The notes: generated by a model not told the origin, from the letters alone. A stretch of 63,957 bases of DNA from a virus (IMGVR_UViG_3300028025_006013:1-63957), one strand, 5' to 3'; shown: positions 7,818 through 62,408, counted from the stretch's first letter. Translations and numbers: made by a program.

Positions 7818-8081
7818 ATGTCAATCATCACAGAAAAAAAATCCATCACCCCAGATGAACTAACCACACTACGTGGCATACAAGAAGAAACTCAAACCCT
7901 AGTGTTTACACTAGGGGAAATTGAGATCATGCGCCTCCAATTGAACGAACGTCACGATGAAGCAAAAAAGCAATTGCTTGACCTTACAAACCGTGAAAAC
8001 ACATTCAACGAGTTAGTATCCCAAAAATACGGCGACATTGACCTAGATCCATCAACTGGTGAATTTACCACATCCAACTAA
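7818..8081 (+). CDS. Small coiled-coil protein
   Basis: 87 aa, helical, ends KYGDIDLDPSTGEF; late motif at 7793. Confidence 0.6.
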   Translation: MSIITEKKSITPDELTTLRGIQEETQTLVFTLGEIEIMRLQLNERHDEAKKQLLDLTNRENTFNELVSQKYGDIDLDPSTGEFTTSN

Positions 8082-8098
8082 TGGTTTGTGATTTACGC

Positions 8099-8107
8099 AT
8101 ATTTATA
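8099..8107 (+). promoter_or_regulatory. Late-promoter-like motif ATATTTATA (representative copy)
   Basis: ATAT(T/G)TATA copies at 7, 1203, 2138, 7793, 8099, 9875, 11606, 12212, 13842, 16296, 16717, 19251, 27662, 41274, 42230, 45735, 51675, 55089, 57401, 60031 and 62694, nearly all a few tens of nt upstream of starts. Confidence 0.75.
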
Positions 8108-8132
8108 ATTAAATAAAACCATATATTAAACC

Positions 8133-9851
8133 ATGTCTGAAACTTTAATATCCCCGGGTGTACAAATAAACGAAAATGACCAGTCATTCATCACTCAGCA
8201 AGTACTGCAAGCTGGTGCAGCAATAATTGGCCCTACCGTTAAAGGACCCGTAAACATACCTACTGTAGTTACCACATATTCAGATTACAAAAATATTTTT
8301 GGTGAAACATTCACCAGTGGTTCCCAAACATACGAATATTTTACGTCCATATCAGCTCAAAACTATTTCGCTGCCGAGGGAGGTGGTTCATTGTTAGTTA
8401 CTCGCGTTGTAAGCGGCTCATTCACACCCGCTACCGCATCCATAAACATGTCTGGTTCATCATCACCAGCGTTCATCATTGAAACATTATCTGAGGGTGT
8501 AATCATGAACAATGATTACCCGCAAAATTTAAATGGTACATTACCTAGTGGATCGCTAGACAATATTCGATGGGGAATTGAAGCAGCAAATACTGCATCA
8601 GGTACATTTACATTACTTATCAGAAAAGGAAACGACAATACCAATGAAAAATCTGTACTTGAAACATTCAACAATTTATCGCTGGATCCATACTCAAACA
8701 ACTACATTGAGAAACGCATTGGTAACTCAACACAAAACATTGCAAGCGATAGTGGTGATTTCTATTTGTCATCAACTGGAAGTTTCGCAAATATATCCAG
8801 GTACATTCGAATCAGAGAAGTACTTGCCACTACACCAAACTATTTAGACAATTCAAGCCTACCTAAAGCAATATACACGGGAAGTTTACCATTTCCATCC
8901 AGTGGCTCATTTGGTGGTGCTCAAGGAAGTAACATCCCATCAACACCAGGTGAATATTACGGAAATATAACCGGCAACTTACCACAAGGTATACCAACAT
9001 CATCATACAATGATGTAATACAATTGTTAGCAAATAAAGAGGCATATTTATTCAAATACATTACCGCACCTGGATTAATATATTCAAACCACTTTCAGAC
9101 AGTTACATCGTTAATCAACATGGTGCAAGAGCGAAACGACACAATGGCGATAATCGATTCATCACCATATGGTATGGCATCTAATGTAGGTGGAGTTGTA
9201 TCAAACGTTCAATCACTCGATACATCATTTGCAGCTACTTATTGGCCATGGGTTCAATTAAACAATTCACAGAACACTCAAGTGTGGGTACCTGCATCCA
9301 CAATCATTCCAAACGTATATGCATTCAATGATCGTGTATCTAAACCATGGTTCGCACCAGCGGGTATAAACCGTGGAAGACTTACACAGGTATCTCAACT
9401 TGAGAGAGTTGTTACCCAATCAGTGCGCGATGATTTATACAAAGCAAACATCAACCCAGTTACATTATTCCCTGGATCTGGCGTAACCGTTTACGGTCAG
9501 AAAACGTTATCGAAAAAACCAAGCGCATTAGACAGAGTAAACGTAAGACGTTTGTTAATCGAATTGAAAAGCTTCATTGGCCAATTCGCAAACACATTAG
9601 TGTTCGAGCAAAACAACCAAGTCACACGTGACCGATTCTTGACCCAAGTTAACTCATACCTAAACCAGGTACAGTTGCAACAAGGTTTAGACGATTTTAA
9701 TGTAGTGATGGACGAAACAAACAACACACCTGATGTAATTGACAACAATCAATTAGTTGGACAGGTATACATTAAACCAACACGCTCTGCAGAGTTCATT
9801 TTACTTGAATTCAACATATTACCAAGCAGTGCCACACTAGATGGGCAATAA
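8133..9851 (+). CDS. Contractile tail sheath protein 1
   Basis: SPGV N-terminus, PWFAPAGINRG, ALDRVNVRRL and IKPTRSAEFI motifs. Confidence 0.93.
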   Translation: MSETLISPGVQINENDQSFITQQVLQAGAAIIGPTVKGPVNIPTVVTTYSDYKNIFGETFTSGSQTYEYFTSISAQNYFAAEGGGSLLVTRVVSGSFTPATASINMSGSSSPAFIIETLSEGVIMNNDYPQNLNGTLPSGSLDNIRWGIEAANTASGTFTLLIRKGNDNTNEKSVLETFNNLSLDPYSNNYIEKRIGNSTQNIASDSGDFYLSSTGSFANISRYIRIREVLATTPNYLDNSSLPKAIYTGSLPFPSSGSFGGAQGSNIPSTPGEYYGNITGNLPQGIPTSSYNDVIQLLANKEAYLFKYITAPGLIYSNHFQTVTSLINMVQERNDTMAIIDSSPYGMASNVGGVVSNVQSLDTSFAATYWPWVQLNNSQNTQVWVPASTIIPNVYAFNDRVSKPWFAPAGINRGRLTQVSQLERVVTQSVRDDLYKANINPVTLFPGSGVTVYGQKTLSKKPSALDRVNVRRLLIELKSFIGQFANTLVFEQNNQVTRDRFLTQVNSYLNQVQLQQGLDDFNVVMDETNNTPDVIDNNQLVGQVYIKPTRSAEFILLEFNILPSSATLDGQ

Positions 9852-9896: not shown

Positions 9897-11591
9897 ATGG
9901 GCAATTTCACAACTTCACCAGGAGTAACATTAAACGAGGTAGACAGAACATACCTTTCCGGCCAGCCAATCCAAGTTGGTGCAGCTATAATAGGACCTAC
10001 AGTTAAGGGTCCAGTCGAAATTCCAACTGTGGTTACATCATATTCAGAATACAAAAATATATTCGGAGATGTTTTGACAAGTGGAAGCGATGTATATTCA
10101 TACTTCACATCAATAGCAGCATATAATTATTTCAATTATGGCGGTGAATCATTATTAGTAGCTAGAGTAGCACATGGTTCATTCACATCAGCAACTTCAT
10201 CTATAATTGAAAACGACTCATTAGACGATGTATTTCAGCTTGAAACATTATCGCAAGGTGTAATCATGAATAATAATGTTACAGGTTCTGGAGGTGCATT
10301 AACTAACGGAACAGTAGACAACATCCGATGTGAAATTACTAAAACAAATGATGCAGCTGGTACATTTAACTTAGTAGTGCGTCAAGGTAATGATTTGACA
10401 AGTAAAAAAATAATACTTGAAACATTCAACAACTTAAGTTTAGATCCGAAAGCACCAACATATGTTGCTAGAGTAATCGGTGACCAAACATATAGCTACA
10501 ATTCATCAACTAACCAAATGGAAATTGAAGGTTCGTTCCCGAACCGTTCAAAATACATTCGTGTAGCTCAAGTAAACGTAACTACACCAGATTATTTAGA
10601 CGCAAACGGTCAGCCAAAAGCCATTTACGCAGATACAATACCTGTAGTTCAACAAATCGTTTTCGGTGGTGCAGCAGGAACAATAATGGGTGGTGCAAAT
10701 TTCTACCACAACATCAACTCAACAAATACACAAGGTTTAGTTGCATCTAACTACGACAATATGATTAATTTGTTGTCAAACAAAGACGAATACCGTTTTA
10801 ACTTACTTGTTGCCCCTGGATTAACTAGCGATTTATACACTACTGAAATCAATACAATCATCAGCAATACACAAGAGAGAGGCGACAGTTTATTTATTGT
10901 AGACTTAGCCGCCTATGATGCAACAGGATTTGACGCGGTTGATCAAGCACAATCAATTGACAATTCATACGCTGCAGCATATTGGCCATGGTTAAACATT
11001 GTGGATCCAGCTACAGGAAAATATGTTTGGGTTCCAGCATCAACATTGATACCAGGTGTATACGCATATAACGATAAAGTATCCGCTCCATGGTTTGCTC
11101 CAGCAGGTATAAACAGAGGTGGTTTATCAACTGTACTACGTGCTCAATATAAATTGACACAAAATCAAAAAGACGAGCTATACATAAACAACATCAACCC
11201 AATCAACACATTCCCAAAACAAGGTGTAGTTGTATTCGGTCAGAAAACATTGCAAAAAGGTAATTCTGCACTGGATAGAGTAAACGTAAGACGTTTATTG
11301 ATTGAGTTGAAAGGATATATTGGTCAATTAGCAGACAACATTGTATTTGAACAAAACACAGCACAAACTCGTTTTTCATTTACAAACAAAGTAGAGCCAT
11401 ATTTGCAAAGCATTCAACAACGTCAAGGTTTATATGCATATAAAATAATAATGGACGAAAGCAACAACGGACCTGATGTAATAGACAGAAACCAATTAGT
11501 AGGTCAAATTTACATTCAACCAACTAGAACAGCAGAATTTATTTCATTGGATTTCGTACTTTTACCAACTGGGGTAAATTTCCCGGAGTAA
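9897..11591 (+). CDS. Contractile tail sheath protein 2
   Basis: Same sheath motifs; paralog of 8133..9851. Confidence 0.93.
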   Translation: MGNFTTSPGVTLNEVDRTYLSGQPIQVGAAIIGPTVKGPVEIPTVVTSYSEYKNIFGDVLTSGSDVYSYFTSIAAYNYFNYGGESLLVARVAHGSFTSATSSIIENDSLDDVFQLETLSQGVIMNNNVTGSGGALTNGTVDNIRCEITKTNDAAGTFNLVVRQGNDLTSKKIILETFNNLSLDPKAPTYVARVIGDQTYSYNSSTNQMEIEGSFPNRSKYIRVAQVNVTTPDYLDANGQPKAIYADTIPVVQQIVFGGAAGTIMGGANFYHNINSTNTQGLVASNYDNMINLLSNKDEYRFNLLVAPGLTSDLYTTEINTIISNTQERGDSLFIVDLAAYDATGFDAVDQAQSIDNSYAAAYWPWLNIVDPATGKYVWVPASTLIPGVYAYNDKVSAPWFAPAGINRGGLSTVLRAQYKLTQNQKDELYINNINPINTFPKQGVVVFGQKTLQKGNSALDRVNVRRLLIELKGYIGQLADNIVFEQNTAQTRFSFTNKVEPYLQSIQQRQGLYAYKIIMDESNNGPDVIDRNQLVGQIYIQPTRTAEFISLDFVLLPTGVNFPE

Positions 11592-41137: not shown

Positions 41138-41210
41138 GGGGGTATAGCTCAGTTGGTAGAGCACTACACTTGCAATGTAGAAGTCGTGGATTCGAATTCC
41201 TCTACCTCCA
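41138..41210 (+). tRNA. tRNA-Ala(UGC)
   Basis: Cloverleaf GGGGGTA/TACCTCC-A with G3:U70; anticodon loop CT-TGC-AA; TTCGAAT T-loop; CCA not encoded. Confidence 0.93.
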
Positions 41211-41222
41211 CTCCATTTTGCG

Positions 41223-41268
41223 CAGAAGGTTTGAATTCTTTTCGGAGGGTTCGAACCTTTCTGTTTTT
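41223..41268 (+). terminator. Long hairpin/terminator after tRNA-Ala
   Basis: CAGAAGGTTTGAATTCT...AGGGTTCGAACCTTTCTG followed by a T-run. Confidence 0.7.
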
Positions 41269-41294
41269 CCACCATATTTATAATAAAACGCAAA

Positions 41295-41753
41295 ATGGAA
41301 ACAAAACATTGCCCTAAATGTGGCGAAACAAAAACAATCGATTTATTTCGCAACAACAAGAAACAACCAGACGGGTTGTATCGAATATGCAAAGCTTGCT
41401 GCAAGGCATACGAACAAAAAGCATACCGCAATAATCCCAAACGATATATCGAAAGGAGTGTAAAACGCATTCAATCCAACCGGGAATGGATAAACCAATA
41501 CAAACAAAATGCATCTTGTACCAGATGCAAAGAAGATAGGTGGTGGATCATTGATTTCCACCATATAAATCCAGCTGAAAAAGAATACACTATCAGTGAC
41601 ATAGCAGGGAGATTTCCATATGATATAATCATGAAAGAAATTGAGAAATGCATAACCCTATGCCGTAATTGTCATTACGAATTTCATCATTTGGAACGCA
41701 CGGAAAATATCAGTTTAGACGAATACTTAAACAACCAACAACATGGAAACTAA
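41295..41753 (+). CDS. Zn-finger HNH endonuclease 1
   Basis: CPKC..CKAC, CTRC, DFHH, LCRNCH motifs. Confidence 0.8.
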   Translation: METKHCPKCGETKTIDLFRNNKKQPDGLYRICKACCKAYEQKAYRNNPKRYIERSVKRIQSNREWINQYKQNASCTRCKEDRWWIIDFHHINPAEKEYTISDIAGRFPYDIIMKEIEKCITLCRNCHYEFHHLERTENISLDEYLNNQQHGN

Positions 41754-42201
41754 AACATGTCCCAAATGCAAGGAAACCAAACAGGTTGAATTGTTTTCCC
41801 GCAATAGACACAAAGAGGATGGCCTGCAACGAACATGTAAACAATGTATCCGAGAAGCCGGTATCAAATCATACAACAAAAACAAAAAATCCTATTTGTC
41901 ACGCGTATCAAAACACAATAAATCTATATTAGACAATGTGAACCAATACAAAGCTAACCAGACATGCCAAAAATGCGGAAACGACAAATACTATTTACTC
42001 GATTTCCACCATATTGACCCATCCATAAAAGATGATAATGTCAACACTATAGCCAGGACTAGAGGAAAGCAAGCACTATCGGACGAAATAGCAAAATGTA
42101 CCATACTATGCAAAAATTGCCACTCCGATTTCCACCACCTCGAACGTACATCCAGTATTACCATATTCGATTATTTACCTAATTTACCTCGAACTGTTTG
42201 A
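41743..42201 (+). CDS. Zn-finger HNH endonuclease 2
   Basis: Tandem paralog of 41295..41753; same length (152 aa) and motifs. Confidence 0.8.
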   Translation: METKTCPKCKETKQVELFSRNRHKEDGLQRTCKQCIREAGIKSYNKNKKSYLSRVSKHNKSILDNVNQYKANQTCQKCGNDKYYLLDFHHIDPSIKDDNVNTIARTRGKQALSDEIAKCTILCKNCHSDFHHLERTSSITIFDYLPNLPRTV

Positions 42202-42267
42202 TTCAGTTTGAACCTTTCCTTTTTTCACCATATTTATACTTGTAATAACTTTAAACAATTTAAAAAA

Positions 42268-43098
42268 ATGGGAATACTCATAAACGGACAAGTTGGATGG
42301 CGTAGCGCTACTGTGGTAGGAGCACCATCTGGGGGATGTGGTTATGCAGATACTGATGTATGTAATTTCATCACGGCTGCATCAATCACTGACACAACAC
42401 AAAAAAACGCAATTAATACCCTGGTAGCACAATTAAAAACATATGGTATATGGACGAAACTAAAAGCGGTTTATCCATTTGTAGGTGGGACTGCTTCAAG
42501 TCACAAATTTAACTTGAAAGACCCACGTGATTTGGATGCAGCGTATAGATTGACATTTAATGGTGGATGGACACATTCAAGCACTGGTGCTAAACCAAAT
42601 GGTACTACAGGATATGCAAATCCATATTACACAAATGTTACGGATAATTCGTCTATGTGGTATTATTCAAGAACTAATAATACAACTAATGGTCTTGAGA
42701 TGGGTGTATATAATAACCCATACTCAGACACTGCATTGATTGTATATTGGAATGGTGGCTCTAGCGGATATATTAGGGCATTATCCAATGGTTATTCTGG
42801 GTTAGACTGGGCTGCAACAACATCCCAAGGTTTTTATGGCGCAAATAGAACTTCATCTACATTAGCCAATTCTTGGCATAATGGTCTTAAAAAAGGTACG
42901 AATACAAATACATCATCACAAGACGCATTTACTAAAACATTATTTATTGGCGCATATAATAGTAATGCTGGTGCTACGTATTTTTCAAATAAAGAATCGG
43001 CATTTGCATCAATCGGAGATGGTTTAACTGACACTGACGCAGCTAACTTCTACACAGCAGTTCAAACATTCCAAACCACACTAGGCAGAGCAGTATAA
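42268..43098 (+). CDS. Virion-associated beta-rich protein, cassette copy 3
   Basis: Paralog of 45..893; start MGILINGQVGWRS. Confidence 0.65.
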   Translation: MGILINGQVGWRSATVVGAPSGGCGYADTDVCNFITAASITDTTQKNAINTLVAQLKTYGIWTKLKAVYPFVGGTASSHKFNLKDPRDLDAAYRLTFNGGWTHSSTGAKPNGTTGYANPYYTNVTDNSSMWYYSRTNNTTNGLEMGVYNNPYSDTALIVYWNGGSSGYIRALSNGYSGLDWAATTSQGFYGANRTSSTLANSWHNGLKKGTNTNTSSQDAFTKTLFIGAYNSNAGATYFSNKESAFASIGDGLTDTDAANFYTAVQTFQTTLGRAV

Positions 43099-43118
43099 CC
43101 CACTAAACATACACAACA

Positions 43119-43334
43119 ATGAAAGTAAGACAATTAACCGAAGAACAAAAAAATCAATTAGTTGGCCAAACATACGATGGTGTACAATTTTTCAACCCAA
43201 CACTTGACGCGAACGGTGTATGGTTCATTTCAAACGAGGAAGTAAACAACTGTACACATCAAGGCGTTACCGAATGGATACATGACCTACCTGAAATCGA
43301 CTACAACCCAGTAGTAAGCGAATTACCATTCTAA
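43119..43334 (+). CDS. Small partner protein, cassette copy 3
   Basis: Near-identical to 915..1133. Confidence 0.75.
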   Translation: MKVRQLTEEQKNQLVGQTYDGVQFFNPTLDANGVWFISNEEVNNCTHQGVTEWIHDLPEIDYNPVVSELPF

Positions 43335-43358
43335 CCCACACTACATTTCAAAAAAACA

Positions 43359-43390
43359 TTTGGCTCCGCAAGGAGCCATTTGTATGTTTA
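43359..43390 (+). promoter_or_regulatory. Hairpin-containing TTG-N20-TAnnTTT promoter/terminator element
   Basis: TTTGGCTCC-GCAA-GGAGCCATTTGTATGTTT; near-identical copy at 52165. Confidence 0.75.
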
Positions 43391-43414
43391 CACATAATTT
43401 AAAATAAAACATTT

Positions 43415-43561
43415 ATGTCAAAATCAACAACAAGACAACGAGTAGAAACATTGCAAGGATGGTTAGCATTCATCACCCGCAACACACCTAAAAAAACAAC
43501 CCGCGTATCACACGAGAGTAAACCATCGCTAGATCAAATCATGCGCGAACACAACAAGTAA
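43415..43561 (+). CDS. Small hypothetical protein (48 aa)
   Basis: Translated by eye (MSKSTTRQRVETLQGW...); fills the gap between the promoter and the AlaRS gene. Confidence 0.55.
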   Translation: MSKSTTRQRVETLQGWLAFITRNTPKKTTRVSHESKPSLDQIMREHNK

Positions 43562-43567
43562 ACCACA

Positions 43568-44410
43568 ATGAAAGACATCCGCACACTATACCAACAGTAC
43601 TGCGAATCCCATTCAATCCCATTCAGACACGACAACAAAGTAAATCCATACGATGATACTACATTGTTTTGCCCAGCGGGAATGCAACAATTCAAACCGA
43701 AATTCAAAAACCCAGACAACACAACCATAGCAAACATACAATCGTGTATACGTTTGCAGGACATTGCGGAAATTGGAGACGGTACACATTTGTTGCATTT
43801 CAACATGCTTGGCTTGTTTTCATTCGGTGAAATGAACATGCAACAAGCGGTTGACTTTTGGATGGAATTCATTGAACGTGTACTCGAAATCAAAGTAGAC
43901 ACAATCACCATTCACCCCCACAAACTGGATGAGTGGAGACACATGTACGATGCGTATCCACACCTCAACATCACCACAGACGAGGAATGTATCTGGTCAG
44001 ATGGTGAGATGGGTGGCTACTGTACCGAATTTTATGTAAACGGGGTGGAAATAGGCAACATAGTTAACACGTTAGATCAATTCATAGATGTTGGATTCGG
44101 CATGGAGCGACTTGAGCTCATGGCAAATGGCGAACAAGTAAAGTCAGCGCTGGATACGCTGCGAGAAACAATCGAGCGCATCATCGACTCGGGCTACAAA
44201 CCTGGACCACAAAAGCAAGGGTACATTTTACGCAAATTGCTTCGTGAACTGTATGTACAGGGCGGAGAAATGGAGCACCCATTTTTCACCCAAGAGGTGG
44301 AACGTCAAGCGAAAGCAAAAGCGCGCTATGAGCGATTGGTAGTTAAACATCCAGGTATGCCAAAAGAGTGGTGGTTCGATACACATGGAGTAGATTTAGA
44401 TCTCTTGTAA
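43568..44410 (+). CDS. alaS: Minimal alanyl-tRNA synthetase (aminoacylation and acceptor-recognition domains only)
   Basis: DDTTLFCPAGMQQFK, QSCIR..D..EIG...H..F.MLG.FSFG, EIGNIV, DVGFGMER, G..P....GYILRKLLR and FDTHG match AlaRS signatures; no editing or C-Ala domain. Confidence 0.88.
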   Translation: MKDIRTLYQQYCESHSIPFRHDNKVNPYDDTTLFCPAGMQQFKPKFKNPDNTTIANIQSCIRLQDIAEIGDGTHLLHFNMLGLFSFGEMNMQQAVDFWMEFIERVLEIKVDTITIHPHKLDEWRHMYDAYPHLNITTDEECIWSDGEMGGYCTEFYVNGVEIGNIVNTLDQFIDVGFGMERLELMANGEQVKSALDTLRETIERIIDSGYKPGPQKQGYILRKLLRELYVQGGEMEHPFFTQEVERQAKAKARYERLVVKHPGMPKEWWFDTHGVDLDLL

Positions 44411-44624
44411 AAAAACGTGATTGCCACATATGTATGTCGTATATTGGTTGAAAACGCATTTAAAACATTAGCCCGAAGTACAAGGGAACGTAAGCAGCGC
44501 AAGGCGGTCATTTAGGTGAGTAAAACGAAATTGAGGTATCCTCATTCACCGCACACTCGGCTCCAAAACGTATGTTGGCACAAGTTTGTATGTTTTAGTG
44601 GTGCTCTCAGCAAAACATACACAT

Positions 44625-44696
44625 GCTCCGTTAGTGAAGCGGTTAACACGCTGCCCTTTCACGGCAGAAGCGCGGATTCGAATTCCGCACGGAGTA
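44625..44696 (+). tRNA. tRNA-Glu(UUC)
   Basis: GCTCCGT/ACGGAGT-A acceptor; CTGCC-CTTTCAC-GGCAG anticodon arm; GCGGA-TTCGAAT-TCCGC T-arm. Confidence 0.92.
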
Positions 44697-44700
44697 CAAA

Positions 44701-44935
44701 TAGTTCGTTGATTTATATTGGAAAACATGTAAGACCCAGGTTCGACTCCTGGCACGTCCACCACAAACCGACAATACATCACACATGGGCGTGTACTTGG
44801 ATTTGATTGCATGCGACGTACGGTATATTGAGAATTGTTTAACGCTTTAAACGGCAACCAAAACCATATGAGCATTGCTGCCTAGTAGGTAGTTTTACTC
44901 AAAGCATTTTACCCATTTGGCTTAGTTAAATGGGA
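44701..44935 (+). ncRNA. ssrA: Circularly permuted (two-piece) tmRNA
   Basis: Acceptor piece 44701-44763 (GAC-CCAGG-TTCGACT-CCTGG-CACGTCC-ACCA) precedes the coding piece starting at 44787 (GGGCGTG-TACTTGGATTTGA); G3:U70; tag GNQNHMSIAA* at 44853-44885. Confidence 0.88.
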
Positions 44936-44938
44936 ACT

Positions 44939-45025
44939 GGAAGGGTGGGTGAGTGGTTTAAACCAGAGCACTTGAAATGCTCCGAACTTGAGAAAGTTCC
45001 GCGGGTTCGAAACCCGCCCCTTCCT
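44939..45025 (+). tRNA. tRNA-Ser(UGA)
   Basis: GGAAGGG/CCCTTCC acceptor; GAGCA-CTTGAAA-TGCTC anticodon arm; long variable arm. Confidence 0.92.
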
Positions 45026-45031
45026 CTGAAC

Positions 45032-45245
45032 TATATAGTGTCTCGGTACGCTCTGATGTTATTTATTCATCAACGACGAGGTCCCGGTAGGCAGAACGCG
45101 TCTGATCCTACCCAAATTTATCCCCCCTGTCAATTCCATTTGGCAGGTTTAGATCCTGTGGTCACACCATCAGAACTGCTCACTGGACTTTCTCGTTGCA
45201 TGGGAAAGCAATGCGTCGCTCGAGCAACCATTGTATAACCGGCAC
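45032..45245 (+). ncRNA. Unidentified structured RNA (~210 nt)
   Basis: GC-elevated intergenic region with nested helices, closed by a long-range stem and followed by a terminator. Confidence 0.55.
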
Positions 45246-45248
45246 CGC

Positions 45249-45293
45249 CCCCAACCATACCCACAGACGTGCGGGTTTTTGGTTGGGGTTTTT
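45249..45293 (+). terminator. Terminator of the RNA operon
   Basis: CCCCAACCA...TGGTTGGGG-TTTTT. Confidence 0.8.
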
Positions 45294-49183: not shown

Positions 49184-49621
49184 ATGTATAAACTGTTGGA
49201 CATACTGATGGAAACACGTATATTTGAGTTAGCATATCATCGCAAAAATGCTATGGACAAAGTACGCGACATCAGCCTCAACACAAGCATGGAATTGCTC
49301 AAAATACTAATGTACAAAGACTCCCGCAACCAAAACCATTGGCGCGGTAAATTTGATGGGTGGATGGCTGGAATCAAACGTTATTCCAAAGGTACCCTAA
49401 AAGTACATGACCTGTTCAATTTGCTATGGGTGGAGCCATTGGGTGAAATAGACCAATTGGAAGATTTGATTAGCATGGTTGAAGCCGATTACTATACACC
49501 ATCATACCATATCGACTACAATGATTTACCCGCATTGCACAACCAAATGAAAAATATATTTGCGGATATATCCAGGGATATAGTAAACAATAAACGCATA
49601 ACTATAAACAATTACATATGA
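49184..49621 (+). CDS. Hypothetical protein
   Basis: 145 aa; KLLDILME leader. Confidence 0.55.
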   Translation: MYKLLDILMETRIFELAYHRKNAMDKVRDISLNTSMELLKILMYKDSRNQNHWRGKFDGWMAGIKRYSKGTLKVHDLFNLLWVEPLGEIDQLEDLISMVEADYYTPSYHIDYNDLPALHNQMKNIFADISRDIVNNKRITINNYI

Positions 49622-50424
49622 AACAAGAAAAAAAACACGCCGTAGTTTCACTGAGTGGGGGAATGGATTCAAGCACATTACTGCTACGTTGCTTAAAAGA
49701 ATTCGATACTGTAACCGCTATTTCATTTGACTATGGTCAAAAACATAGAGTAGAATTGGAACGCGCTCAATCGTTGGTAAACTATTTAAACTCAAAAGAA
49801 GACATATACATTAACTATCGCGTAATCAAATTAGACGGTTTAGTTGATTTACTTAACTCTACATTAGTGGAAGGTGGTGCAGATGTGCCTGAAGGTCACT
49901 ACGCTGAGGAAAACATGAAAGCAACTGTAGTTCCAAACCGCAACAAGATATTTGCTTCCATCACTCAAGCAATCGCTTTATCCGTAGCAGACAAAACAGG
50001 CGAAACATGTGACATTGCGTTAGGTATCCATAGCGGTGACCACTCTGTTTATCCTGATACTACTGAAGAATTTAGACAAGCAGATACACATGCATTCAGA
50101 ATAGGCAATTGGGGCTCAGAAAACGTTGGTTTCTTTACACCATACATGGAGGGAGACAAATTTACTATTCTACAAGACGGAGAAACGTTATGCCGTGAGT
50201 TAGGACTGGAATTTAATGAAGTATATAAACGCACAAATACTTCATACAAACCATACCCATCTGGTAATTCAGACTACAAATCAGCATCTTCAGTTGAACG
50301 TATTGAAGCATTCATCAAATTAGGTAAACCCGATCCAGTACAATACGAAGACGAAACTGGTGAAGTAAGTTGGGAGGTAGCCCGAGCACATGCAGAACAT
50401 GTATTAGCTTCACACAATTCGTAA
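49618..50424 (+). CDS. queC: 7-cyano-7-deazaguanine synthase
   Basis: SLSGGMDSST, FDYGQKH, VVPNRN, YPD motifs. Confidence 0.93.
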   Translation: MKQEKKHAVVSLSGGMDSSTLLLRCLKEFDTVTAISFDYGQKHRVELERAQSLVNYLNSKEDIYINYRVIKLDGLVDLLNSTLVEGGADVPEGHYAEENMKATVVPNRNKIFASITQAIALSVADKTGETCDIALGIHSGDHSVYPDTTEEFRQADTHAFRIGNWGSENVGFFTPYMEGDKFTILQDGETLCRELGLEFNEVYKRTNTSYKPYPSGNSDYKSASSVERIEAFIKLGKPDPVQYEDETGEVSWEVARAHAEHVLASHNS

Positions 50425-60773: not shown

Positions 60774-62408
60774 ATGAGTAAACAAATCAAACTTGGTGCT
60801 GAAGCACGTAAAAAATTAGCAAACGGAATCGATACATTAGCAGACGCTGTGGTATCCAGTTTAGGCCCGCAAGGTAGAAACACAGTATACTTCAATGACG
60901 GTGTTGCTGTATCAACAAAAGACGGTGTATCTATCGCGAAACACATTTCGGAATTGGAAGATCCAATCGAAAACTTGGGCGCGCAAATGATCAAGCAAGC
61001 CGCAATCAAAACAGCAGACAATGCGGGTGACGGTACAACTACATCCACATTATTAGCTCGTGAAATCGTTAAGCAAGGTTTGCAACGTTTAAACGAGGGT
61101 GGAAACGCAGTTGAAATCAAACGCGGTATCGACGATGCAGTAAAGCAAGTAATCGAATCACTTAAACAAAACTCGGAAAAAATCACTTCGGAAGAGCAAC
61201 TTGAGCAAATCGCTTCCATATCTGCAAACAATGACCCAGAAACTGGTAAATTGATTGCTCGCGCAATGGAGAAAGTAGGCCGTGAAGGTGTGGTACACAT
61301 CGAGGAATCTCGCACTGGCGAAACATACCTGGAGGTAGTTGAAGGTATGCAATTTGACCGTGGCTACAAGTCACCATATTTCGTTACCAACAACAACAAT
61401 ATGTCAGCTGTATTAACTGACGCGTTAGTGTTGATCGCTGACCATAGATTCACACAAGTGAAAGAATTGCTACCTATTTTAGATGGTGTAGCTCGCACTG
61501 GAAAATCGTTACTTATCATCGCGGAGGACATTGACGGTGAAGCGCTAGCAACACTAATTGTAAACAAAATGCGTGGTACATTAAAAGTGGTAGCTGTTAA
61601 AGCACCTGACTTTGGCGACCGTAGAAAGTTGATCTTGGAAGATATCGCTGTATTGACTGGCGGTACCGTATTCGACAAAGACAAGGGTATGAAATTGGAC
61701 AAATTCCAGGACGAGTGGTTCGGTAAAGCGCGTACAATCACTGTAACCAAAGAACAAACCACAATCGTGGATGGTCAAGGTGCAGAGGAAACAATCACTA
61801 AACGTGTGGAAGAGTTGGAAGCACAAATCGATAAATCAACCACTCCATTTGAAACTGAAAAATTGCAGGAACGTTTGGCAAAATTCATTGGTGGTGTTGC
61901 TTTAGTGCACGTAGGTGGAAACACTGAAACCGAAATGAAAGAAAAGAAAGACCGTGTAGACGATGCATTGCACGCAACTAAATGTGCTTTGGAAGACGGT
62001 ATTGTTCCTGGTGGTGGTACAGCATTATTATATGCTAGAGAAAACATCAAATTCACTGAGGACGCAAGTAGTGATTTCGTTTACGGTCAAAACATCGTAT
62101 ACAAATCTTGCGGTAAACCGTTTGAGCAAATCTTAACCAACGCTGGATATGATCAAGTTGATTCAATCATTTTATCGCGCCAATTACGCGATGGAGACGC
62201 GAAATGGAGCGGATACAACATCAAAACAAAATCCATCGTAGACATGAAAGAAGCAGGCATACTTGACCCAACCAAAGTAACCCGCAACGCATTATTGAAT
62301 GGATCCAGTATCGCAGGTACTATTTTATTAACCGAGTGTGTTATCGTAGACAAGCCAGAAGACAAGAAAGAAGACGGTGGCTACGATCCATCTCAAATGA
62401 TGATGTAA
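60774..62408 (+). CDS. groEL: Chaperonin GroEL
   Basis: LGPQGRN, TKDGV, AGDGTTT, EGMQFDRGY, APDFGDRRK motifs. Confidence 0.97.
   Translation: MSKQIKLGAEARKKLANGIDTLADAVVSSLGPQGRNTVYFNDGVAVSTKDGVSIAKHISELEDPIENLGAQMIKQAAIKTADNAGDGTTTSTLLAREIVKQGLQRLNEGGNAVEIKRGIDDAVKQVIESLKQNSEKITSEEQLEQIASISANNDPETGKLIARAMEKVGREGVVHIEESRTGETYLEVVEGMQFDRGYKSPYFVTNNNNMSAVLTDALVLIADHRFTQVKELLPILDGVARTGKSLLIIAEDIDGEALATLIVNKMRGTLKVVAVKAPDFGDRRKLILEDIAVLTGGTVFDKDKGMKLDKFQDEWFGKARTITVTKEQTTIVDGQGAEETITKRVEELEAQIDKSTTPFETEKLQERLAKFIGGVALVHVGGNTETEMKEKKDRVDDALHATKCALEDGIVPGGGTALLYARENIKFTEDASSDFVYGQNIVYKSCGKPFEQILTNAGYDQVDSIILSRQLRDGDAKWSGYNIKTKSIVDMKEAGILDPTKVTRNALLNGSSIAGTILLTECVIVDKPEDKKEDGGYDPSQMMM

Follow-up and report, generated by a model that had tools for sequence, protein, structure and literature searches.

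A conserved putative miniature alanyl-tRNA synthetase in a phage tRNA island that also carries an alanine tRNA and a two-piece tmRNA

A 280-aa open reading frame (ORF) in a freshwater phage encodes what is, judged from sequence, a conserved derivative of alanyl-tRNA synthetase (AlaRS) with an intact alanine/ATP site. We lean toward reading this protein, mini-AlaRS, as a minimal enzyme that recognizes only the acceptor stem and sits in a plastic tRNA island, with the tmRNA encoded nearby as a plausible but incidental substrate. The window, by which we mean the entire 63,957-nt stretch analyzed (IMGVR_UViG_3300028025_006013), comes from an ordinary-sized myophage of ∼170 kb, as calculated from a CheckV completeness estimate of 37%. 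The original prediction placed a tRNA-Ala, an AlaRS-like ORF, and a two-piece tmRNA within ∼4 kb, which ARAGORN, Rfam, and Pfam confirm (Table 1), and proposed that the phage carries its own enzyme to charge both RNAs. The conserved AlaRS derivative and the identity pairs in the RNAs bear out part of that proposal; the idea of a dedicated, conserved module is not supported.

Table 1. Features of the island, with positions counted from the first letter of the window
Feature	Position	Strand	Evidence
tRNA-Ala (anticodon UGC)	41138-41211	+	ARAGORN; Rfam RF00005, 71.6 bits; acceptor ends from sequence
Two tandem 152-aa HNH-endonuclease ORFs	41295-41753, 41743-42201	+	PHROGs (first), likeness (second)
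296-aa ORF, phrog_17104 (function not assigned), and 71-aa ORF	42208-43334	+	ORF map, PHROGs
Terminator-like hairpin, 3' of 71-aa ORF	43361-43378		Terminator scan
280-aa mini-AlaRS-like ORF	43568-44410	+	Pfam PF01411, PDB profile search, hhalign, family conservation
Intergenic spacer, 214 nt	44411-44624	+	Alignment, terminator scan, fold
tRNA-Glu (UUC)	44625-44697	+	ARAGORN, Rfam
tmRNA acceptor (3') piece	44711-44763	+	Rfam RF04321 alignment, sequence
Segment between both tmRNA pieces, 23 nt	44764-44786	+	Rfam alignment, sequence
tmRNA coding (5') piece	44787-44935	+	ARAGORN, Rfam, sequence; 3' end only bounded, before tRNA-Ser
tRNA-Ser (UGA)	44939-45026	+	ARAGORN, Rfam
Possibly structured RNA stretch	45027-45293	+	Fold, partial conservation in L003

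The ORF is assigned to AlaRS by several comparisons. It matches the AlaRS class II core in Pfam (PF01411) with 80.2 bits against a cut-off of 30.3 (E 1.6e-22), and the family profile retrieves only AlaRS chains from the PDB (all 15 distinct sequences), matching them in three collinear pieces, among them the "PSNegRGYVLRR" helix. With hhalign, residues 1-280 align end to end with residues 5-409 of E. coli AlaRS, with internal deletions (probability 99.2%), and the comparison with a profile of 10 full-length AlaRS gives E 8e-61 in forced global mode. Neither an editing domain nor a C-Ala domain is present. No separate editing-domain gene (PF07973) was found in the five records searched, namely, the window and four others, three of them complete, and no neighboring gene is conserved across 154 loci; together these results argue against its being one half of a split enzyme.

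The protein could in principle be no enzyme at all, serving as a decoy or regulator that binds host factors or the acceptor stems of tRNA-Ala or tmRNA, or being a decaying AlaRS remnant. Its extreme shortening would fit, as would its score against the curated alaS model (NCBIfam TIGR00344), where 80.2 bits falls far below the cut-off of 457.05. We consider this reading very improbable given the conservation of the family. Residues R62, W143, E154, E161, V166, D174, G176, G178, and R181 are invariant in all 72 aligned members and N164 is kept in 71, the active-site residues aligning with R70, W171, N213, V215, D236, and G238 of E. coli AlaRS (Met1-inclusive numbering). Length stays constant at ∼280 aa across hundreds of sequences, and between the window and its relative L014, synonymous codon differences (80) well outnumber nonsynonymous ones (19), so that the gene is evidently under purifying selection. 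The family is monophyletic, large, and strongly conserved, and it has persisted in phages and bacteria.

What is left for recognizing RNA is small. An E. coli AlaRS fragment that ends near residue 368 makes the adenylate and is not known to charge tRNA, and alanine transfer by so short a protein as mini-AlaRS is thus not assured. The tRNA-recognition domain has been cut to about 90 residues, and the protein is ∼180 residues shorter than the smallest forms reported active in PMC10036535, the 461-aa Tupanvirus enzyme and the E. coli N461 fragment. In E. coli AlaRS, the G3:U70 pair is read by N303 and D400 (PMC10036535). The position of N303 is occupied by N in 31 and by P in 30 of the 72 members, with P214 in the window. 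D271, the equivalent of D400, is conserved as Asp in 59 of the 72 and replaced by Glu in 7, in a C-terminal alignment of low confidence; the protein ends nine residues beyond D271, and hhalign gives low per-column confidence for the match of these last 15 residues to the D400 motif. The elements that read G3:U70 appear to persist as remnants.

Both RNAs of the window carry the pair that such elements would read. The tRNA-Ala has the acceptor stem GGGGGUA/UACCUCC followed by A73, with G3:U70. ARAGORN calls a permuted tmRNA on the + strand at 44671-44976, with ends that are over-extended because they overlap both neighboring tRNAs; the Rfam model tmRNA_permuted (RF04321) matches 44711-44885 across model positions 1-213 of 213, with 64.2 bits against a gathering threshold of 47 (E 4.4e-10). 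The 3' acceptor strand CACGUCC (44753-44759) is followed by an encoded ACCA (44760-44763) and shares its piece with the T-arm, while the 5' strand GGGCGUG (44787-44793) opens the other piece. The resulting pairs are G1:C, G2:C, G3:U, C4:G, G5:C, U6:A, and G7:C. All parts of the tRNA-like domain are found (7-bp acceptor stem, T-arm, discriminator A, and CCA), the minimum free energy fold recovers the T-arm and the acceptor helix, and both RNAs have A73 along with the originally predicted G3:U70. The tag frame GNQNHMSIAA (44853-44882), closed by two UAG stops (44883-44888), is identical in the relative L004, from which the T-stem differs by two compensatory changes. By analogy with known two-piece tmRNAs, the 23-nt segment between the pieces would be removed in processing.

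The island itself seems plastic. The tRNA-Ala lies 2.36 kb upstream of the mini-AlaRS ORF, with the two HNH ORFs and two other ORFs in between. The first HNH ORF matches phrog_2255 (HNH endonuclease, E 5.9e-32), and the second is assigned through its likeness to the first alone, outside the PHROGs scan; since both are missing from the equivalent position on the ORF map of L014, we regard them as mobile insertions. The RNA cluster does begin directly downstream of the AlaRS-like gene, 214 nt after its stop. This spacer is well kept in relatives L003 and L004, has no terminator-like site called within it, and shows no significant fold (z -0.51). Rfam scores for the tRNAs are 71.6 (tRNA-Ala), 66.5, and 54.5 bits (cut-off 29). 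The stretch past tRNA-Ser folds with a z-score of -3.47 (1 of 200 shuffles equally stable) and has no Rfam match at E<=1; the hairpin at ∼45248-45288 and the U-run that close it look like a terminator of the RNA cluster. The three parts would be functionally compatible and are probably coexpressed.

This proximity on one strand, together with the shared identity elements, is what one would expect of a dedicated module in which mini-AlaRS serves the phage tRNA-Ala and tmRNA when host AlaRS, tRNA, or tmRNA is attacked, so that translation and ribosome rescue, or tagging directed by the phage, would go on. The arrangement recurs in the relative L004/L014 (L004 protein 93% identical). In L085, which represents an independent lineage (43% identity), the mini-AlaRS gene and a one-piece tmRNA are separated by 1.9 kb. 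Three mid-sized contigs (G012, G015, and G020) have both genes 12-21 kb apart, and two huge phages hold mini-AlaRS, tRNA-Ala, tmRNA, and SmpB together, with smpB 2.2 kb from mini-AlaRS in one phage of 482 kb. In the window, smpB is missing as predicted (PF01668 not found), in a record that covers only ∼37% of a genome according to CheckV. We nevertheless consider a dedicated module unlikely. In L003, whose enzyme is 95% identical, tRNA-Glu and tRNA-Ser lie 10 nt apart and the tmRNA is cleanly missing. The co-occurrence and synteny check suggested with the original prediction came out against it in a census of 76 related viral loci with a 10 kb neighborhood: a tmRNA is found at only 2 and a tRNA-Ala at 15. 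Short contigs pull the observed tmRNA distances downward, and by a rough estimate of chance adjacency, fewer than one lineage would be expected where two were seen, which is not significant. Among the enzyme-carrying records of at least 100 kb, 14 of 22 have no tmRNA above Rfam cut-offs, including 4 of the 8 rated at least 88% complete by CheckV; one of these records (G003, 88% complete) has seven tRNAs, none of them Ala, and no tmRNA. Cultured phages are reported to carry tmRNAs (PMC4131195, PMC9004378), and among 50,697 deposited phage records mini-AlaRS has only 4 matches, one of them close, so phage tmRNAs evidently work without this enzyme. These absences and the lack of any constant neighbor speak against a conserved, co-inherited module.

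The family is widespread, unstudied, and usually found without a tmRNA. It is spread over large phages and Rhizobiales genomes, and its neighborhoods point in two directions. Some tRNA gene lies within 10 kb at 28 of the 76 viral loci; no nearby tRNA-Ala was recorded at 48 of the 76 and at all 77 cellular loci. At 11 of the 19 loci with tRNA arrays, one of the three closest tRNAs is tRNA-Ala (7.1 expected, p 0.012, relatedness ignored), and at 5 of 19 it is the closest of all (2.8 expected, p 0.11); of the 12 loci with a tRNA-Ala within 2 kb, 3 depend on an 88-nt ARAGORN call that reads as U3:A70. Other aminoacyl-tRNA synthetase (aaRS) genes adjoin mini-AlaRS at 4 of the 13 huge-phage loci scanned for neighbors: GlyRS-like genes of 246 and 266 aa lie directly beside it in L001 and L028, the latter also with a TyrRS-type gene, L043 has AspRS and SmpB, and L078 has an ArgRS-like gene. 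That huge-phage copies sit in tRNA islands beside aaRS genes supports a real role in aminoacylation.

The remaining loci invite a different use, outside ribosomal translation, in which Ala-AMP or Ala-tRNA would supply alanine to a small molecule, a protein, a lipid, a cell-wall precursor, or a phage DNA modification that depends on aminoacyl-tRNA. The 77 cellular loci, mostly Rhizobiales, have no Ala-accepting RNA gene near mini-AlaRS; rhizobial copies are solitary at a conserved chromid position in hosts that already own a full AlaRS, which also speaks against the module. The gene likewise lies away from any tRNA in many T4-like contigs of marine or freshwater origin, and the protein is without editing and the main tRNA-binding domain. 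Other paralogues of the class II aaRS catalytic core act on non-tRNA acceptors. The Mom system of phage Mu, which hypermodifies DNA by means of Gly-tRNA-Gly (PMC13219725), offers a precedent that recalls the GlyRS-like mini enzymes in two huge phages. We hold a nontranslational use to be quite improbable, however, because both motifs by which AlaRS reads the acceptor stem appear to be kept, the gene is embedded in islands of tRNA and aaRS genes, and no acceptor or transferase partner gene is conserved in the 154 loci.

The most likely reading remains a minimal AlaRS that reads the acceptor stem. The aminoacylation domain of an AlaRS would have shrunk through several internal deletions to give mini-AlaRS, whose intact active site would make alanyl-adenylate and pass alanine to RNAs with G3:U70 in the acceptor helix, reading that stem only and without editing. 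Host and phage tRNA-Ala would be its substrates, and so would any tmRNA, since the acceptor helix it offers is the same. In this island with homing-endonuclease genes, the tRNA-Ala would be an old neighbor of mini-AlaRS, and the two-piece tmRNA would have been inserted recently, as an accessory, between tRNA-Glu and tRNA-Ser, which argues against a dedicated, co-inherited module.

Set beside known systems, mini-AlaRS shares with bacterial AlaRS, including E. coli N461, the active-site residues, the "GYVLRR" helix, and the "DT(Y/H)G" motif. It differs from the E. coli enzyme by deletions within the catalytic domain, from motif 3 to the Asn helix, and from the Asn helix to the Asp motif, and it stops at the equivalent of residue ∼409, without the editing, C-Ala, and oligomerization parts. 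As in the split AlaRS of Nanoarchaeum equitans (PMC10036535), the catalytic part stands on a polypeptide of its own; unlike for that enzyme, no partner was found, PF07973 being missing from all five records searched and no neighbor being conserved. Melnitz-like myophages, which are marine and aquatic, carry a permuted ssrA that is common but not group-defining (PMC9004378), a patchiness also seen here. Their ssrA precedes a transcription coactivator and itself bears a glutamine riboswitch, unlike the window tmRNA, which has tRNA genes on both sides and follows mini-AlaRS, and the main text of that paper describes no AlaRS, with no occurrence of "alanyl" or "alanine" (PMC9004378). Huge phages encode tRNAs, up to 15 tRNA synthetases, tmRNA, and SmpB, proposed to charge phage tRNA variants and redirect host translation (PMC7162821); "alanyl" does not occur in the main text of that report, which does not single out an AlaRS, miniaturized or not, and the phage of the window is of ordinary size. 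The closest parallel is the 461-aa TuAlaRS of Tupanvirus (PMC10036535), likewise virus-encoded, without editing and C-Ala domains, and with motifs 1-3 kept. TuAlaRS is akin to the AlaRS of its eukaryotic host and has lost the conserved Asp (T416) (PMC10036535), whereas the mini-AlaRS family forms a clade of its own, made up of phages and Alphaproteobacteria, and appears to keep that Asp. In both, a Pro replaces the conserved Asn (P321 in TuAlaRS, P214 in the window). The specificity of TuAlaRS was established experimentally and that of the phage family is predicted here from sequence; despite its Pro, TuAlaRS recognizes the acceptor stem only and stays specific for G3:U70 (PMC10036535).

The 280-aa ORF of the window matches the AlaRS core, and the family to which it belongs, mini-AlaRS, is large. 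At E<=0.001, a word-indexed search returned 950 proteins with lengths of 154-490 aa; the top 120 are 259-330 aa long with identities of 54-96%. The ESM Atlas, which contains the sequence, returned the same family only. When 50%-identity representatives were searched exhaustively with HMMER, 44 clusters passed E<=1e-30, with a longest member of 403 aa and no long fusion among these 44 representatives; full-size AlaRS (800-900 aa) appears among the matches only from about E 1e-17. Judged by these homologues, the ORF is neither a fragment nor a one-off. Searched against the PDB, a 49-member profile drew hits from AlaRS chains alone (15 of 15 distinct sequences), among them the A. fulgidus entry 3wqy, an AlaRS-tRNA complex. 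The match falls into three collinear segments: the N-terminal catalytic part, motif 3, and a helix, SGYKPGnkkQGYVLRKLLR, which aligns with dGvlPSNegRGYVLRRivRR of AlaRS. In local mode, hhalign places residues 1-280 of mini-AlaRS on residues 5-409 of E. coli AlaRS (probability 99.2%), with deletions in the catalytic domain and on both sides of the Asn helix (toward motif 3 and toward the YDTYGFP motif).

Two E. coli residues, N303 and D400, are said in the available text of PMC10036535 to hydrogen-bond G3:U70; in the E. coli translation they lie within MPSNENRGYVLRR and RLYDTYGFPVDL, respectively. Of 72 aligned members of the family, 59 have D and 7 have E at the position of D400; at that of N303, 31 have N and 30 have P, and the window and its clade are among those with P (P214). 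All 72 share the residues R62, W143, E154, E161, V166, D174, G176, G178, and R181 of the pocket and motifs, and 71 keep N164. The alignments show an intact AlaRS-type active site, together with stubs of the elements that read the acceptor stem. The window gene and that of its 93%-identical relative differ by 80 synonymous and 19 nonsynonymous codons; the window mini-AlaRS is under purifying selection. We note that the protein scores far below the NCBIfam alaS cutoff and that it has neither an editing domain nor a C-Ala domain. It is an AlaRS derivative that falls outside full-length membership tests and most likely works like the aminoacylation domain; that it is not an enzyme at all we regard as highly improbable. 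A split enzyme was ruled out as well, as neither the window nor any of four other records searched (three of the four complete) has a gene for the editing domain (PF07973) and no conserved protein-coding neighbor of mini-AlaRS was found across 154 loci.

On balance, we think it probable that mini-AlaRS is a minimal acceptor-stem AlaRS residing in a plastic tRNA island. The enzyme would activate alanine and transfer it, with no editing, to G3:U70 helices, serving the tRNA-Ala of both phage and host. A tmRNA would be charged as well, because AlaRS recognizes tmRNA by the same acceptor features as tRNA-Ala. The available text of PMC4131195 refers to AlaRS discrimination features in the tRNA-like domain.

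The four RNA genes of the window, all on the + strand, are called concordantly by ARAGORN and by Rfam at gathering thresholds (see table). The tmRNA has a T-arm and a 23-nt intervening segment between its two pieces, and acceptor pair 3 is G:U in both the tmRNA and the tRNA-Ala. Its outer limits from ARAGORN are over-extended, since they overlap both flanking tRNAs. The tmRNA and tRNAs are ordinary examples of known RNA types, and phage tmRNAs, two-piece ones included, are already described in the available portions of PMC4131195 and PMC9004378. ARAGORN, Rfam, and PF01411 bear out the three parts named in the original prediction, namely, a tRNA-Ala with G3:U70, an AlaRS-like ORF of 280 aa, and a two-piece tmRNA with G3:U70. 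The window itself, an entire IMG/VR virus record of 63,957 bp or ∼37% of a genome by the CheckV estimate, is a piece of a large myophage genome, because it encodes two adjacent tail-sheath paralogues, a ribonucleotide reductase, a DNA polymerase, and a GroEL homologue. It also encodes a QueC homologue, suggestive of a 7-deazaguanine pathway in the phage.

Features of the window and of other loci or records
Feature	Record	Position	Strand	Support
Tail-sheath paralogue, first	window	8133-9851		phrog_23, E 5.9e-70
Tail-sheath paralogue, second	window	9897-11591		phrog_23, E 1.8e-73
tRNA-Ala(UGC)	window	41138-41211	+	ARAGORN, Rfam
Terminator-like hairpin	window	43361-43378		
Mini-AlaRS ORF	window	43568-44410	+	PF01411, E 1.6e-22
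Stretch with tRNA-Glu, replaced in L004	window	44624-44719		
tRNA-Glu(UUC)	window	44625-44697	+	ARAGORN, Rfam
Permuted tmRNA	window	44711-44885	+	RF04321, 64.2 bits vs cutoff 47; ARAGORN
tmRNA 3' acceptor strand CACGUCC, then encoded ACCA	window	44753-44763	+	
tmRNA 5' acceptor strand GGGCGUG	window	44787-44793	+	
tmRNA tag frame GNQNHMSIAA and two UAG stops	window	44853-44888	+	
tRNA-Ser(UGA)	window	44939-45026	+	ARAGORN, Rfam
Structured stretch 3' of tRNA-Ser	window	45027-45293		fold z -3.47
Depth peak	window	45086-45146		one lake metagenome
Terminator-like hairpin	window	about 45248-45288		
QueC homologue	window	49618-50424		PF06508, E 2.3e-37
GroEL homologue	window	60774-62408		
GlyRS-like class II core, 246 aa	L001	7748-8485		PF00587
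Thg1-like tRNA-His guanylyltransferase homologue	L001	9928-10764		PF04446, E 3.1e-29
GlyRS-like class II core, 266 aa	L028	9146-9943		PF00587
88-nt 'tRNA-Ala(agc)'	L066	8555-8642		ARAGORN
88-nt 'tRNA-Ala(agc)'	L067	9338-9425		ARAGORN
88-nt 'tRNA-Ala(agc)'	L082	9326-9413		ARAGORN
Mini-AlaRS gene, R. leguminosarum	L165 (NZ_CP030763.1)	7908-8818		
Two 'tRNA-Pyl (cta)' calls and a tRNA called with a 4-base anticodon	L204	7665-7865		ARAGORN
Distant AlaRS-like match	MT835476.1	53599-54516		25% identity

Terminator-like hairpins bracket the mini-AlaRS ORF, three RNA genes, and a structured stretch, and this arrangement would fit a single transcription unit. The idea that the 214-nt spacer between the ORF and tRNA-Glu holds a structured leader or other RNA was rejected (fold z -0.51), and a sigma-70 promoter scan was uninformative (11 sites vs 13.6 expected). 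In metatranscriptome run X16, parts of the AlaRS gene are covered by three contigs and the RNA cluster by none, the uncovered parts carrying no meaning, and library X15, whose RNA origin is a guess, gave low-depth contigs of 90-95% likeness over both; contigs of this kind are unable to show transcription, ends, or processing. The structured stretch folds more stably than its shuffles and ends in a hairpin and U-run; Rfam gives no match, and part of it is conserved in L003, a locus whose protein is 95% identical. Within it, a sharp depth peak in one lake metagenome suggests a widely shared element.

Close relatives differ in the makeup of the island. In L004/L014 (protein 93% identical), the tRNA-Ala lies 875 nt upstream of the enzyme gene, and a tmRNA with an identical tag is followed by a tRNA-Ser, an HNH gene, and a tRNA-Thr. 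In L003/L013, tRNA-Glu and tRNA-Ser are separated by 10 nt and the tmRNA is absent; this contig stops short of the expected tRNA-Ala site. Between tRNA-Ala and the ORF, the window has two HNH genes and ORFs of 296 and 71 aa vs a single 203-aa ORF in L014, and so the tRNA island is plastic. The tRNA-Glu of the window gives way in L004 to unrelated sequence, with no tRNA by ARAGORN or Rfam and the tmRNA retained, and the same replacement is seen in one contig of the best-matching metagenome (X1). Two compensatory pair changes in the T-stem between the window and L004 argue that the tmRNA would be functional where present.

Some linkage to tRNA genes extends beyond these relatives. Any tRNA lies within ±10 kb of 28 of the 76 viral loci and a tRNA-Ala call within that distance of 15, 12 of them within 2 kb; by our own reading, 3 of these 12 rest on an 88-nt 'Ala(agc)' call with a U3:A70 acceptor pair. 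Having U3:A70 and not G3:U70, these calls, which come from three related phage contigs, may represent a long-arm tRNA with another identity that reads an alanine codon. When isotype labels were shuffled within the 19 loci having at least three tRNAs (two duplicate loci left out), the nearest tRNA was Ala in 5 loci vs 2.8 expected (p 0.11), and Ala was among the three nearest in 11 vs 7.1 expected (p 0.012, with loci treated as unrelated). A subset shows real linkage to tRNA genes generally and, to a modest degree, to tRNA-Ala.

Linkage to tmRNA is sporadic. The co-occurrence and synteny expected across relatives did not materialize: a tmRNA lies within ±10 kb of 2 of the 76 viral loci (L014 and L085; L085 belongs to an independent lineage, and its tmRNA is one-piece and 1.9 kb from mini-AlaRS), and it is missing in L003 and, at the Rfam cutoff, in 14 of the 22 records of at least 100 kb, all of which carry the enzyme. 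The remaining eight (G005, G006, G007, G009, G012, G015, G017, and G020) have one above the cutoff. At CheckV completeness of at least 88% (n = 8), four records have a tmRNA and four (G003, G008, G019, and G022) do not; whole-record ARAGORN of G003 gives seven tRNAs, no Ala among them, and no tmRNA. Where both are present, the enzyme gene lies 12-21 kb from the tmRNA in mid-sized partial contigs and 60-360 kb from it in huge genomes, long distances being invisible in partial contigs. In a reverse test, a tmRNA acceptor-arm pattern in viral contigs recovered a tmRNA in 4 of 18 short stretches (one of them the L004 contig) and mini-AlaRS in none of the 18; the pattern is too unspecific and the result too small to count. 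The proposal that the phage owns the charging of both RNAs is partly supported: the AlaRS-type active site and the G3:U70 pairs in both RNAs stand, and the dedicated module is unsupported. An alanylation/trans-translation set of that sort is unlikely, and the idea is tempered by the distribution of the enzyme, which shows that the selective value of mini-AlaRS is independent of a phage tmRNA. The main interest is the enzyme family, not the module.

That distribution is broad. Several of the 76 viral loci are in contigs of 200-600 kb with CheckV completeness of 95-100%, and 77 cellular loci were found in one-genome-per-species contigs, most from Rhizobium, Neorhizobium, Inquilinus, Phyllobacterium, and Caulobacteraceae; matches also came from 121 plasmid records, Rhizobium accounting for 90. 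Deposited phage genomes match in 4 of 50,697 records, closely in one only, the uncultured 634-kb phage LR745206.1 (54% identity). Distant matches of ∼300 aa, 25% identical across about 80% of the query, occur in MT835476.1 and two other gut 'Bacteriophage sp.' records and may represent a further short AlaRS-like lineage of gut phages. Contigs near-identical to a stretch of the window come from runs of many studies, and those with shares of at least 0.30 are mostly labeled lake or fresh water; two of the DNA runs (X1 and X2) were aligned to the window. In a single FastTree run (136 rows reduced to 121 after dropping lengths outside 240-420 aa and identical last 260 residues), mini-AlaRS forms one clade against full-length AlaRS, with viral sequences basal and a rhizobial clade nested inside. 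We tentatively read the cellular clade as nested within viral diversity; four cellular rows on a very long branch are probably mis-called ORFs.

Rhizobial mini-AlaRS persists alongside a normal AlaRS, and in R. leguminosarum ATCC 14479 the gene stands alone, annotated 'alanine--tRNA ligase-related protein', beside a RES/Xre pair and ABC transporters. The R. leguminosarum gene (L165) adjoins a RES-family NAD+ phosphorylase/Xre antitoxin pair, and such neighbors are common to 14 of the 77 cellular loci. Alanyl transfer outside translation has to be weighed here; we hold it to be quite unlikely, and the translation-island context of huge phages supports an aminoacylation role. In LR745206.1 (L001), the order is tRNA-Gly, a 246-aa GlyRS-like core, mini-AlaRS, tRNA-Gly, tRNA-Ala, and a Thg1-like enzyme; in L028, a 266-aa GlyRS-like core, mini-AlaRS, and a TyrRS-type enzyme. 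In the complete 482-kb genome of L043, a YggL-like protein and seven tRNAs precede mini-AlaRS, tRNA-Ala, and tRNA-Glu, followed by a full AspRS (415.9 bits vs cutoff 353) and by SmpB, 2.2 kb downstream of mini-AlaRS. L078 has an ArgRS-like protein upstream.

Mini-AlaRS, tRNA-Ala, tmRNA, and SmpB occur together, not contiguously, in two huge phages (G005 and G006). A bolder version of the minimal-enzyme reading, rather unlikely in our estimation, would make mini-AlaRS the smallest natural AlaRS, self-sufficient and reading the G3:U70 acceptor helix only, that gives phage tRNA-Ala and tmRNA a private, editing-free alanylation and allows rescue or tagging without host AlaRS, with phage SmpB in some huge phages. 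Both GlyRS-like cores lie directly upstream of mini-AlaRS, beside tRNA-Gly genes, in two huge phages; their best NCBIfam match is glycine--tRNA ligase, far under the cutoff. They are possibly a second family of miniaturized synthetases and hint at a wider set of phage enzymes that read the acceptor stem. The Thg1-like gene of LR745206.1 comes just after tRNA-Ala, and L204, a 455-kb phage contig with a permuted tmRNA, has two amber-suppressor-like tRNA calls.

In the textbook example, AlaRS, one acceptor-stem base pair determines tRNA identity, and how little protein is needed to read G3:U70 is a long-standing question. To our knowledge, work on it so far has used engineered fragments and a single giant-virus enzyme of 461 aa. 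A natural, abundant, highly conserved form of 280 aa would set a new lower bound, and mini-AlaRS is readily testable, being small and soluble-looking with hundreds of homologues. Phage sets of aaRS, tRNA, tmRNA, and SmpB are already described in the available text of PMC7162821. Our literature search found no 280-aa AlaRS family and no phage AlaRS-tmRNA link, though the supplementary tables of PMC7162821 may list such genes, and for 'mini-AlaRS' it returned only the Tupanvirus paper and one preprint citing it. By this comparison, the 280-aa family appears to be new, as an AlaRS derivative of a known enzyme type. At ∼180 residues shorter than any AlaRS form we found reported active, the window mini-AlaRS has its size counting against the proposed mechanism. 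The Tupanvirus AlaRS, which lacks C-Ala and has P at the Asn position, is still G3:U70-specific and supports growth, according to the available text of PMC10036535; the window mini-AlaRS likewise lacks C-Ala and has P214 at that position.
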